Shown in pieces: positions 24,045 through 43,819 of a DNA stretch of 64,000 nucleotides. The stretch is from the NCBI GenBank assembly GCA_963815215.1, contig CAWFFU010000003.1, positions 544,001 to 608,000 of the forward strand, read 5' to 3'. The DNA comes from an uncultured Trueperaceae bacterium. GTDB taxonomy: Bacteria; Deinococcota; Deinococci; Deinococcales; Trueperaceae. Position 1 is the stretch's first letter, and the number at the start of each line of letters is the position of its first letter. The translations under genes were made by a program, and so were the position numbers. The notes under the pieces are model-generated. The model was not told the DNA's origin and ran no database searches. It saw only the letters and a program-made list of their open reading frames with translations.

Positions 24045-24670
24045 CAGCGCGCCCCCCTGTTCGATTGCCTGACCACCAGCATCGAGCCGTTCGCGCCGGG
24101 GAGGGCGCCCTTGATGAGGATCAGGTTGTCGTCCTTGCGGACGTCCACGACCTGGAGGCCGATCGTCGTCACGGCGCTCGCGCCGTGACGCCCCGCCATG
24201 CGCTTGCCCTTGTAGACGCGGCCCGGCGACTTGCGGTTCCCGATGGAACCGCCGTGGCGATGTTTCTTCTTGGTGCCGTGGGTGGCCGGCATGCCGGCGA
24301 ACCCCCAGCGCTTGACCACGCCGGCGGTACCGCGACCCTTGCTCGTGCCGGTGACGTCGACCGTCTCGCCCGGCTCGAAGATCTCGACCGTGACGCTGTC
24401 GTCGTCGGGGGCGTAGTCCCTGAACTCCACCAGGTGACGCTGCGGCGCGACCCCCGCCTTGCGGAAGTGCCCGAGCTGGGGTTTGTTCACGAGTTTCTCT
24501 CGCTTCTCCACCCAGCCGAGCTGCACGGCGGAATAGCCGTCACGCTCCGGCGTCTTGCGCTGCACCACGGGGCAAGGCCCGGCGAGGACGACGGTCACCG
24601 GCACGAGCCGGTCCCCGTTCCACACCTGGGTCATACCCACCTTGGTGCCGAGAATGCCTTTCACGTTCAT
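24044..24670 (-). CDS. rplC: 50S ribosomal protein L3
   Basis: 'GTKVGMTQ', 'DGYSAVQLG', '[11 protein letters not shown]'. Confidence 0.98.
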
Positions 24671-24987
24671 CGTCCTCCGACGGTCTTGATCTCGATGTCC
24701 ACCCCGGTCGGCAGATCGAGGTGCATGAGGGAATCGATGGTGCTCTTCGTCGGCGACTTGATGTCGATCAGCCGGTTGTGCGTGCGGATCTCGAAGTGCT
24801 CTCGGCTGTCCTTGTTGACGAACGGCGACCGGAGCACGCAGAACCGCCGGATACGCGTCGGAAGGGGAACCGGGCCGGCGACCTTGGCACCCGTGCGCCG
24901 GACGGTCTCCACGATCTTGGTCGCAGAGCTGTCCAGGCTACGGTGATCGAACGCCTTGAGCTTGATACGAATCTTGGGGGCTGCCAT
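24667..24987 (-). CDS. rpsJ: 30S ribosomal protein S10
   Basis: '[11 protein letters not shown]', 'GPVPLPT', '[10 protein letters not shown]'. Confidence 0.98.
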
Positions 24988-24989
24988 GG

Positions 24990-26207
24990 TTACTTCGTCA
25001 CGGCCGTCACGACACCCGCACCGACCGTCCGACCCCCCTCACGAATCGCAAACCGCAACCCCTCCTCCATCGCAATCGGCTTGATCAACTCCACCCCAAG
25101 CTCCACATTATCCCCAGGCATCACCATCTCCACACCCTCCGGCAACGACACCACCCCCGTCACATCCGTCGTCCGAAAGTAAAACTGCGGGCGATACCCA
25201 GAAAAAAACGCGCTATGCCGCCCCCCCTCCTCCTTCTTCAACACATACACCGACCCACGAAACACCGTATGCGGCGTAATCGACCCAGGCTTCGCCAACA
25301 CCTGACCCCGCTCGATCTCCTCACGCCCCACACCCCGCAACAAAACCCCCACATTATCCCCAGCCATCCCCGAACCCAACGTCTTCCGATGCATCTCCAC
25401 ACCCGTCACAACCGTCTTCCGCGTATCCCCCAACCCAACAATCTCAACCTCATCCCCCGTCTTCACCTCACCACGCTCAATACGACCCGTCGCCACCGTC
25501 CCACGACCCGTAATCGTAAACACATCCTCCACCGGCAACAAAAACGGCTTCTCCACATCCCTCACCGGCGTCGGAATATACCCATCCACCGCATCCAACA
25601 ACTCCCAAATCCGATCCACCCACTCATTCTCACCACGCTGCATCGACGGATTCCCATGCAACGCCTCCAACGCCCTCAACGCAGACCCCGCCACCACCGG
25701 AATCTCATCCCCCGGAAACTCATACAACGACAACAGCTCCCGAACCTCCATCTCCACAAGCTCCAACAACTCCGCATCATCCACCATGTCCACCTTGTTC
25801 AAAAACACCACAATATTCGGCACACCCACCTGACGCGCCAACACAATATGCTCACGCGTCTGCGGCATCGGCCCATCCGCAGCCGACACCACCAACACCG
25901 CACCATCCATCTGCGCAGCCCCCGTAATCATATTCTTCACATAATCCGCATGCCCCGGACAATCCACATGCGAATAATGCCGCGCCACCGTCTGATACTC
26001 CACATGCGCCGTATTAATCGTAATCCCACGCGCCTTCTCCTCCGGCGCCTTATCAATCTGATCGTAATCCTGAATCTCCACCGACGGATCCGCCGCCGCA
26101 GCCGCAAACGTAATCGCAGCCGTCAACGTCGTCTTCCCATGATCCACATGCCCAATCGTCCCAACATTCACATGCGGCTTCGTACGCTCAAACACACCCT
26201 TAGCCAT
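24990..26207 (-). CDS. tuf: Elongation factor Tu
   Basis: '[17 protein letters not shown]', '[21 protein letters not shown]', 'NKVD', '[10 protein letters not shown]'; AAGGAG RBS precedes ATG 26207. Confidence 0.99.
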
Positions 26208-26247
26208 GATCGTTCTCCTTGGATTCCGATACGAGGTCGGACGGTTC

Positions 26248-28320
<2,073 letters not shown>

Positions 28321-43742: not shown

Positions 43743-43819
43743 GGGCGATTAGCTCAGTCGGTTAGAGCGCGTCGCTGATAACGACGAGGTCGGTGGTTCG
43801 AGTCCACCATCGCCCACCA
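43743..43819 (+). tRNA. tRNA-Ile (GAT)
   Basis: Acceptor GGGCGAT/ATCGCCC, D-arm AGCTCAG..AGAGC, anticodon arm CGTCG-CTGATAA-CGACG, T-arm GGTGG-TTCGAGT-CCACC, encoded CCA. Confidence 0.97.

Follow-up and report, generated by a model that had tools for sequence, protein, structure and literature searches.

A tuf gene written in G- and T-ending codons, present in two identical copies in a Trueperaceae genome and matched by C-depleted tuf genes in many bacterial phyla

The tuf gene, encoding elongation factor Tu (EF-Tu), in a 64,000-nucleotide (nt) stretch of an uncultured Trueperaceae genome has G or T as the last base of almost every codon. This skew is confirmed and highly non-random, and no published explanation of it was found in the literature searched. 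The stretch, referred to here as the window, corresponds to positions 544001-608000 of contig C3 of the genome under study (G000:C3:544001-608000); G-numbers denote genomes, g-numbers genera and L-numbers loci. tuf is the textbook case of a translationally optimised gene and a standard reference for codon-adaptation indices and phylogeny. Its silent sites here obey a strand-specific rule that overrides the codon usage of the genome, as they do in metagenome-assembled genomes (MAGs) labelled as members of more than ten phyla. The features concerned are listed below by window position, where A3, C3, G3 and T3 are the fractions of third codon positions held by each base (A4, C4, G4 and T4 being those of four-fold degenerate sites).

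24990..26207, minus strand: tuf coding sequence (CDS), the copy adjoining fusA and rpsJ (translation, codon and site-class counts)
24988..26211, no strand assigned: tract 100% identical to the second tuf, G000:C3:825731-826954 (self-BLAST, 1224 nt)
24993..25037, minus strand: last 15 sense codons of tuf, with relaxed skew (codon counts)
26248..28320, minus strand: fusA, upstream neighbour and internal control, C3.50 (third-position and site-class counts)
24667..24987, minus strand: rpsJ, internal control, C3.47 (third-position counts)
25215..26258, plus strand: antisense open frame of 347 amino acids (aa), a by-product of the skew and not a gene (residue composition)

The gene comprises 1218 nt, with 405 sense codons followed by TAA, and its product is a normal EF-Tu of 405 residues. 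Third positions are occupied by G in 270 codons, T in 124, C in 11 (codons 48, 137, 140, 298, 332, 339, 343, 375, 395, 399 and 402) and A in none, giving 394 of 405 codons that end in G or T. The bases at four-fold sites (n=217) are G.78, T.20, C.02 and A 0, and at two-fold pyrimidine sites (n=86) T/(T+C) is.93. All 29 threonine codons are ACG, while leucine is written as TTG at 24 of 27 positions (CTG 1, CTT 2), so that C is shunned at a synonymous first position too. The keto skew of first positions is.23 versus 0-.12 in unskewed orthologues; the force therefore acts on nucleotides and not on the choice of tRNA, and amino-acid choices drift likewise. G+C content is.58 in tuf versus.70 in the contig and the genome. 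In a survey of 2276 open reading frames (ORFs) of at least 150 aa, the fraction of codons ending in C or A (C3+A3) had a mean of.537 and a standard deviation (sd) of.055, and its four lowest values were those of two tuf and two recA ORFs. At p=.537, the binomial probability of 11 or fewer such codons among 405 is 2e-114. A strand-blind scan of the assembly in 33,091 windows of 600 nt (sd.068) placed the strongest keto skew of the genome at tuf.

The neighbouring genes are ordinary in composition. fusA lies 40 nt upstream of tuf, and the start of rpsJ is 2 nt past the tuf stop codon. Third positions of fusA are G.41, T.07, C.50 and A.02 (four-fold sites G.38, C.53; T/(T+C).11; TTR codons 1/46), those of rpsJ are G.38, T.10, C.47 and A.05, and three more nearby ribosomal-protein ORFs have C3 of.48-.51. 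The ribosomal-protein genes and fusA together show C4 of.48-.53 and T/(T+C) of.07-.11, as against.02 and.93 in tuf. Plus-strand GC skew runs from -0.40 to -0.63 within tuf (300-nt windows) and stays within about +/-0.12 in the flanks. The antisense ORF has three valines, one aspartate and no alanine, glutamate or glycine across its 331 tuf-overlapping codons; it stays open because its codons begin with C or A, so that none is a stop. An earlier note, made by inspection of the sequence, had put the C-ending codons at about 11 with none ending in A, which proved exact, and had correctly described the C-rich codons of fusA and rpsJ and the four V/A/D/E/G residues of the antisense frame. Its description of sharp borders with a relaxation in the last 12 or so codons is borne out by the GC-skew windows and by three of the 11 C-ending codons lying there, and its proposed genome-wide check of third positions and keto skew singles out tuf (with recA) as stated above.

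As that note also held, usual translational selection and replication skew do not explain the pattern, the neighbours being ordinary and the flanks near zero. Replication-type GC/TA skew amounts to about 0.03-0.05 in the background and leaves the neighbours untouched, the sign alone agreeing with that of tuf. Transcription-associated asymmetry would cover a whole transcription unit, and fusA and rpsJ, which by their spacing probably share the transcript, are ordinary. The codons of tuf differ from the preferences of the ribosomal-protein genes and fusA, unlike what translational codon adaptation would give, and a C3 of.03 with a T3 of.31 is not the outcome of GC-biased gene conversion (gBGC). 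The literature searched holds no description of a G/T-written or C-depleted tuf, and there is none in the main text of PMC6053082.

A second tuf, which the earlier note had expected, is located at C3:825733-826950, the first lying at C3:568990-570207, and the flanks of the two are unrelated. The copies are 100% identical over the CDS, 2 nt past the stop codon and 4 nt before the start codon, and this identical tract matches the skewed tract. Two recA genes are also present (C3:872310-873389, plus strand; C8:78257-79333, minus strand; 99.4% identity over 983 nt), with G3 of.67-.69, T3 of.14-.15 and C3 of.15-.16. They share an exactly identical core of 948 nt and differ at their N- and C-termini, which makes them an internal control. 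In the core (codons 2-317) C/A-ending codons number 26/286 in the interior and 4/15 and 6/15 at the edges, whereas the 3' tails have 25/41 and 20/29 (45/70 in all; interior versus tails, Fisher p=4e-21). The recA core of congeneric G003 spans codons 16-330, where 30/285 interior codons end in C or A versus 41/79 outside it (p=4e-14); the 15 codons before the core have 8/15 and 6/15, and the tails 18/33 and 9/16. Between these two species, the first 15 recA codons differ as a trend only (14/30 versus 8/30, p=.18). The skew of recA thus follows the duplicated tract within one mRNA and one protein, a border that selection on the whole gene does not predict. The single-copy recA genes of G024, G025, G021 and G011 are unskewed, though tuf in these genomes is more or less skewed. 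Duplicated recA genes with an identical core also occur in G003, G012 and G015.

Few segments of the genome are skewed as strongly as this tuf. Besides the second tuf and the two recA genes, the keto-skew scan identified three mirror segments, in which the sense strand is rich in C and A:

C3:836467-837700 (locus L093:1968-3200), plus strand: SQD1-type NAD-dependent epimerase gene
C12:4943-8328, minus strand: NeuB-family synthase gene and GT28/GNAT gene
C11:194706-195884, plus strand: gene of a 392-aa protein without Pfam match

The skew is therefore not limited to paralogues, and its sign follows the DNA strand and not the direction of the gene, which weighs against explanations at the RNA level. 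The strand rich in G and T coincides with the G-rich, presumed leading strand of its contig in six of the seven segments of strong skew. The mirror genes are among these six, and the one segment that departs is the recA copy at C3:872 kb. The SQD1-like gene has a C4 of.92, C at all two-fold pyrimidine sites (1.00) and A at.58 of two-fold purine sites. Intact orthologues in G004, G003, G007 and G006 have C at.89-.95 and G at.02-.07 of four-fold sites, T/(T+C) of 0-.01 and A-ending codons at 51-67% of two-fold purine sites, versus about 9% in fusA; that of G001 is milder. The mirror skew begins about 14 codons past the start codon and stops at the stop codon. Between species the gene is 96-99% identical and its flanks 62-89%, suggesting either that species exchanged it recently or that it is very strongly constrained. 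Two 1-nt indels shift the reading frame of the G000 copy; they are not shared by metagenome contigs of three runs and are probably assembly errors. At this gene three adjoining contigs of one salt-marsh run have equal depth (25.5, 28.7 and 27.7), depth not being a copy number. The C11 and C12 islands were found in none of nine other genomes of the genus, and the flanks of the C12 island are low in G+C (.53-.59). The suggestion of the earlier note that the process acts only on duplicated sequence thus fails, a single-copy SQD1-like gene and two strain-specific islands carrying the mirror skew. As to other multi-copy loci, recA is skewed within the shared tract, but further near-identical repeats are hardly so: the keto skew is.095 in a Crp-family pair (718 nt, 99.9% identity) and -.10 in a subtilase pair (96.7% identity). 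One 16S and one 23S rRNA gene are assembled in G000, and an Rfam scan of the window identified only one tRNA (43743-43816).

Some further observations were made on this assembly. After tuf and recA, the next most G/T-skewed gene encodes an ABC-transporter ATPase (C3:748362-749147, minus strand; G3.66, T3.12, C3.21), of which a 73%-identical paralogue lies on C2. A contig end, C14:80750-81650, is of low complexity, with one half C-rich and the other G-rich; it would encode Pro- and Gly-rich repeats and is probably unrelated. The contig ends C1/C9, C1/C5, C11/C12, C14/C6 and C6/C9 overlap by 2.4-10.9 kb at 99.3-100% identity, representing unmerged overlaps with small errors. Metagenomes that hold the genus are listed for 14 studies, and no RNA run is listed for the stretch searched.

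Among other genomes of the order, EF-Tu proteins are 81-97% identical. The skew is equally strong in the four congeneric genomes whose tuf could be read (G003, G004, G005 and G007; C3.01-.05, A3 0, 94-98% protein identity), and a 94-codon fragment in G015, of another genus, has a C3 of.02. It is milder in G014 (C3.17), G017 (.18), G024 (.21) and G025/G021 (.16-.19) and absent from G012, G016, G020, G028, G027, G019 and G030, with C4 of.85 in G020 and G at.58 of two-fold purine sites in G027 as examples. The G000 gene is 94.5-95.2% identical to those of G007 and G004 at the nucleotide level, and G<->T is the commonest silent difference (20/39 with G007, 16/24 with G004). In seven of the ten relatives from which both copies were fetched, the two tuf genes share 99.8-100% identity across the CDS, skewed or not; the copies of G003 and G004 are noisy (98-99%), and the second match of G014 is a distant paralogue. 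The tuf of G017 (L061, L062) is a mosaic, with mixed endings in codons 1-225 and nearly all G/T in the last 180. Import of this 3' half from the skewed genus was considered and rejected, as no trace of it appeared when protein identity was compared window by window.

A nucS gene was identified in G000 (PF01939, 91 bits, C4:54170-54487, inside a 306-aa ORF). Profile searches for MutS_I (PF01624) and MutL_C (PF08676) found no match in G000 (completeness 97%) or in nine other genomes of the genus, absence calls in draft genomes never being certain. The distribution among the relatives was as follows:

G000 and nine congeneric genomes: NucS 80-94 bits; MutS_I/MutL_C none found; strong skew where tuf or recA could be read (not in all ten)
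g3, g6, g7, g9 and g10 (same family): NucS present; MutS_I/MutL_C none found; skewed (tuf read in g3, g6, g7 and g9, recA only in g10)
g2, g4 and g8: NucS not found; MutS and MutL present; unskewed (whole tuf from g4 and g8, from g2 recA alone)
g5 (67% complete): NucS not found; MutL only; unskewed (212-codon tuf fragment)
g11 (other family): NucS present; MutS and MutL present; unskewed
g12: NucS not found; MutS/MutL not found; unskewed
g15: NucS present; MutS and MutL present; mild skew
g13: NucS_C sub-threshold only, none with the G000 NucS protein; MutS/MutL present; C4.05

A NucS-only clade thus exists inside Deinococcota, made up of the genus of G000 and five more genera. Within the family all six NucS-only genera are skewed and four genera without NucS are unskewed, while g13 and g15, with MutS/MutL, have a milder, G-rich tuf. 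In a 2017 survey bacterial NucS was found only in Actinobacteria and Deinococcus-Thermus, and the seven Deinococcus-Thermus species analysed also had MutS-MutL (PMC5290159). The same work reports that NucS inhibits homeologous recombination. In M. smegmatis, rejection by NucS exceeds 500-fold for G-G, G-T and T-T mismatches that oligonucleotides create on the lagging-strand template, other mismatches escaping, and the G-T/G-G/T-T specificity is known for the NucS of T. kodakarensis, C. glutamicum and M. smegmatis (PMC11551767).

C-purged tuf genes were identified far beyond Deinococcota using a pattern scan, in which EF-Tu codons 16-31 had to be written only in G/T-ending codons and one genome per species was searched. 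In calibration, the pattern matched six of six tuf loci with extreme skew and none of 11 other fetched tuf loci. It yielded at least 115 stretches, of which 80 were listed, each from a MAG. By their record titles these 80 represent more than ten phyla: Trueperaceae/Deinococcota, Gemmatimonadota, Aminicenantes and other Acidobacteria, Alpha-, Beta-, Gamma- and Deltaproteobacteria, Nitriliruptoraceae, Nitrospira, Armatimonadota, Thermomicrobium, Dehalococcoidia, Rhodothermus, Zixiibacteriota, Clostridia, Thermodesulfobacteriota, Desulfarculaceae and Poriferihabitaceae. The analysis covers the 45 of 80 loci with a tuf match to the query; most of the 35 left out are short, with the pattern at a contig end and the gene cut, and the full-length L171 was also without a match. 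Whole-match C3 in the 45 is.01-.32 and G3.37-.70. As the pattern requires four T-ending two-fold codons, this set is pre-selected toward T, and relatives within it are not independent. Duplication is found here as well. Among five complete chromosomes, all four with a full-length skewed tuf carry it twice, in the same orientation and at a spacing of 16-18 kb, and the fifth (G066) has a single tuf match far from its pattern site. Five of six other-phylum tuf pairs have 0-2 mismatches in the CDS and 0-22 identical nt beyond it, and the pair of G056 has 21 mismatches.

Repair genes were searched for in 35 of these genomes: seven have NucS without MutS (five Trueperaceae-like, two Nitriliruptoraceae), 23 have MutS without NucS, two have MutS with a weak NucS_C-like match and three showed neither system. 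The purge of C from tuf recurs in many phyla and does not require NucS. Of the candidates named in the earlier note, NucS thus finds support within this clade, where nucS is present and the searches for mutS/mutL gave no match; as a general cause it was rejected, given the C-purged tuf of the 23 MutS-positive genomes without NucS. It would be at most a modifier of the flavour of the skew, which was compared between the seven NucS-only and the 23 MutS-positive genomes, the five with a weak match or neither system being left out:

T/(T+C) at two-fold sites: NucS-only median.82 (.66-.97); MutS-positive.57 (.17-.79); p=.0004
A at four-fold sites: NucS-only median 0; MutS-positive.04; p=.0001
T at four-fold sites: NucS-only median.16; MutS-positive.08; p=.05
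C at four-fold sites: NucS-only median.01; MutS-positive.05; p=.009

Several MutS-positive genomes use G only (G4.88-.94), with half or more of their two-fold sites still C. MutS is blind to C-C mismatches, a property familiar from the recombineering literature, and the G-only flavour is what repair blind to C-C is expected to leave. Some MutS-positive genomes are also keto-like (L173, L158 and L119).

The skew is polar along the gene. C/A-ending codons number 0 among the first 15 of tuf in G000, G007 and G004 and 3, 5 and 3 among the last 15; in G000 the C-ending codons are distributed as 0/15 first, 8/375 between and 3/15 last. Across 20 skewed tuf genes from other phyla (less than 80% protein identity to G000), the C/A-ending fraction is.14 in mid-gene and.33,.55,.70 and.61 in the last four five-codon bins; it is.07-.22 in the first 15 codons, with zero in bins 4-6 because these were selected by the pattern. 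In L229 and L234 (G045) and L120 and L122 (G051), 16/20 and 17/20 of the last 20 codons end in C or A, which is above background and could be a built-in C-rich patch.

The reading favoured here, tentatively and with its falsity somewhat the likelier outcome, is that a strand-asymmetric bias in gene conversion between duplicates wrote the skew of tuf. It starts from what was observed directly: the duplication, the identical tract, the restriction of the recA skew to its tract, the distribution among lineages and the content of repair genes. An involvement of duplication and conversion is partly supported, tuf and recA both being duplicated and the skew being limited to the shared tract. For the mechanism we infer which strand forms heteroduplex, a filtering step and the direction of replication. 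Heteroduplex would arise mainly between one recipient strand and the complementary donor strand, and the recipient would be the lagging-strand template, the sense strand of tuf and recA. The sense strand of tuf is taken to be the leading-sequence strand, and hence the lagging-strand template, because the background GC skew makes it G-rich. Mismatch surveillance would then abort some heteroduplexes and pass others. NucS, the sole mismatch-repair system found, would by analogy with its characterised relatives remove G-T, G-G and T-T and ignore the rest. An A or C on the recipient strand could thereby change to anything, a G only to T and a T only to G; if only keto-keto mismatches are rejected, as would hold for NucS-only lineages such as this Trueperaceae clade and the Nitriliruptoraceae, G and T become absorbing at silent sites and G<->T exchange is free. 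In MutS lineages the blindness to C-C, with the escape of other pyrimidine-pyrimidine mismatches, could lead to a G-loaded or purine-loaded tuf. The polarity might reflect polar conversion, in which the 5' end of the donor strand, located at the 3' end of the gene, would be removed by nick translation; bases near the ends of annealed oligonucleotides are known to be processed (PMC11551767). We regard this repair-filter version of the conversion bias as unlikely, and it is similarly doubtful that, owing to mismatch-repair blind spots, gene conversion acts on duplicates as a strand-specific molecular drive and rewrites their silent sites. If true, repair chemistry and the direction of replication, and not translation, would determine the codon usage of tuf in many bacteria, through a new, strand-specific and repair-dependent kind of biased gene conversion. 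This would explain a widespread compositional anomaly and warn against reading tuf codon usage as adaptation. The NucS-only Deinococcota clade, the duplicated recA and the mirror SQD1-like gene are useful natural experiments, whether conversion or selection on the transcript is the cause.

Several findings weigh against the conversion reading. Identical tuf copies occur without skew in G012, G016 (this one with some doubt), G020, G028 and G027, and G012 has two recA copies with an identical core of 972 nt that are equally unskewed (146/294 C/A-ending codons inside, 32/59 outside). Conversion alone is therefore insufficient and a lineage-specific factor is needed, so that the view of duplication and conversion as driver, also taken from the earlier note, is favoured by the tuf and recA tracts and countered by G012, G020 and G027. 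The SQD1-like gene is conserved in the genus and single-copy in G000, so that exchange between genomes would be required, for which the 96-99% identity between species is the indication. The recA copy at C3:872 kb is on the presumed lagging strand, yet its sense strand is G/T-rich. In G017 the skew is saturated in the 3' 180 codons only, yet the copies are identical over the whole CDS. The skew of the G000 tuf starts at codon 2 and relaxes over the last 15-20 codons though the identical tract spans the stop codon; the relaxed part lies inside this tract, and because conversion with a simple edge effect should relax the skew at both ends alike, the polarity counts against such an effect. As regards repair, C-purged tuf in 23 MutS-positive genomes of many phyla makes NucS unnecessary, g13 has a C-poor tuf (C4.05) without detected NucS, and g11 has both systems and is unskewed. 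The correlation of NucS with skew in the family is probably a single phylogenetic split, and five of the seven NucS-only genomes of the scan belong to one family in a set picked by a T-demanding pattern.

Selection on the transcript, the main alternative to conversion, is unlikely. The mRNA of tuf (and recA) would be held low in C and high in G to prevent Rho from loading when translation lags, or more generally so that the RNA remains unstructured, and C-rich antisense RNA would be terminated at once. C outnumbers G in none of the 1141 78-nt windows on the sense strand of tuf, whereas across 2039 genes the median share of such windows is one half, and regions without such a C>G bubble gave no Rho termination in vitro for 28 of 32 templates, 60-80 nt of C-rich RNA being needed (PMC6144790). 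The polarity fits, as the skew holds at the 5' end and relaxes over the last 45-60 nt at the 3' end, where a rut site would act only beyond the gene, and the trait recurs across phyla whatever the repair system. Rho was present in 31 of 31 relatives, as this view requires; for the same reason it does not separate skewed from unskewed genomes. The recA genes are harder to accommodate, as their skew ends at the tract border, 41 and 29 codons before the stops (and starts at codon 16 in G003), and single-copy recA is never skewed. The purge also exceeds what keeping C below G demands (C-G of -13 to -33 per 78 nt, T at 93% of two-fold sites), fusA and rpsJ of seemingly the same operon are ordinary, and the mirror genes have an extreme excess of C over G on the sense strand. 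If selection of this type were nevertheless at work, termination pressure could shape a whole coding sequence.

A mutational asymmetry is improbable. One strand would often be single-stranded (during transcription, in R-loops or D-loops, or in lagging-strand gaps), its C and A being deaminated to T and G. This agrees with the sign of the background replication skew in six of seven segments, with the shift at first codon positions and with the shift of the mirror genes' amino acids toward A/C-rich codons, and vertebrate mitochondrial DNA, with its GT-rich heavy strand and AC-rich third positions, is an analogue (PMC1794132). Against it, the skew breaks off sharply at the limits of a gene or tract, leaving co-oriented neighbours at distances of 2 and 40 nt unaffected, and the recA tails on the same transcript are ordinary. 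Four-fold sites moreover go to G and not T where orthologues have C, for which transversions are needed; plain deamination of C, another candidate of the earlier note, does not predict this preference for G, seen in the threonine codons (ACG 29/29), and was set aside. Quite improbable, too, are codon dialects, a G/T-ending set (read by C34 tRNAs and G34 wobble) and a C/A-ending set (G34 and U34 Watson-Crick pairing) whose translation the supply or modification of tRNAs would adjust, under stress for instance. In tuf and the SQD1-like gene the skew does not extend beyond the CDS, the codon sets of these two are complementary, and the C/A set resembles the preferred tuf codons of unskewed relatives (G020, G027). 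The ribosomal-protein genes and fusA are, however, in neither dialect, the first-position and amino-acid shifts are left unexplained, the recA tails and last tuf codons escape, and saturation is near-total, beyond any codon adaptation in the neighbours. Foreign DNA, a chimera or an assembly artefact is hardly credible. The G000 assembly is noisy, with overlapping contig ends and 1-nt indels not shared by metagenome contigs, but four other assemblies of the genus and long-read chromosomes from other phyla carry the same skew, the changes are confined to silent sites, and EF-Tu groups with its relatives.

Concerted evolution of tufA and tufB is said to have been reported by Abdulkarim and Hughes in 1996 and by Lathe and Bork in 2001, and tuf of the E. 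coli type uses the preferred codons of its genome. Gene conversion as its basis has been described in Salmonella, E. coli and six or more phyla (PMC5485169, PMC6053082). The tuf pair described here is alike in having two copies in different contexts, with identity limited to the CDS and greater within a genome than between species. It is unlike in its strand-specific purge of C, which those sources do not describe in the parts available; the terms 'skew', 'GC content' and 'biased gene conversion' do not occur in the main text of PMC6053082. gBGC, too, is a drive without adaptive basis, by which certain bases become fixed in recombining sequence (PMC8153448, PMC6867656), but it favours G and C equally on both strands, whereas here C is lost, T is gained and G+C falls to.58. 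The NucS/EndoMS system corresponds in that nucS is present in the clade, mutS/mutL were not found there and the published blind spots predict a G/T absorbing state on the strand to which the donor strand anneals; it differs in that the skew also occurs without NucS, and the literature searched does not link NucS to codon usage or conversion bias. The regions refractory to Rho (PMC6144790) resemble tuf, which has no C>G window of 78 nt and a relaxed 3' end of about the length of a rut site, yet those regions are mildly skewed and make up a quarter of the E. coli genome, while the saturation of tuf goes far past the threshold. The strand asymmetry of vertebrate mitochondrial DNA (PMC1794132) shares with tuf a GT-rich and an AC-rich strand, third positions of one base class and the opposite sign on the other strand; there it involves a whole replicon, and here genes of about 1 kb with sharp borders in an ordinary chromosome.

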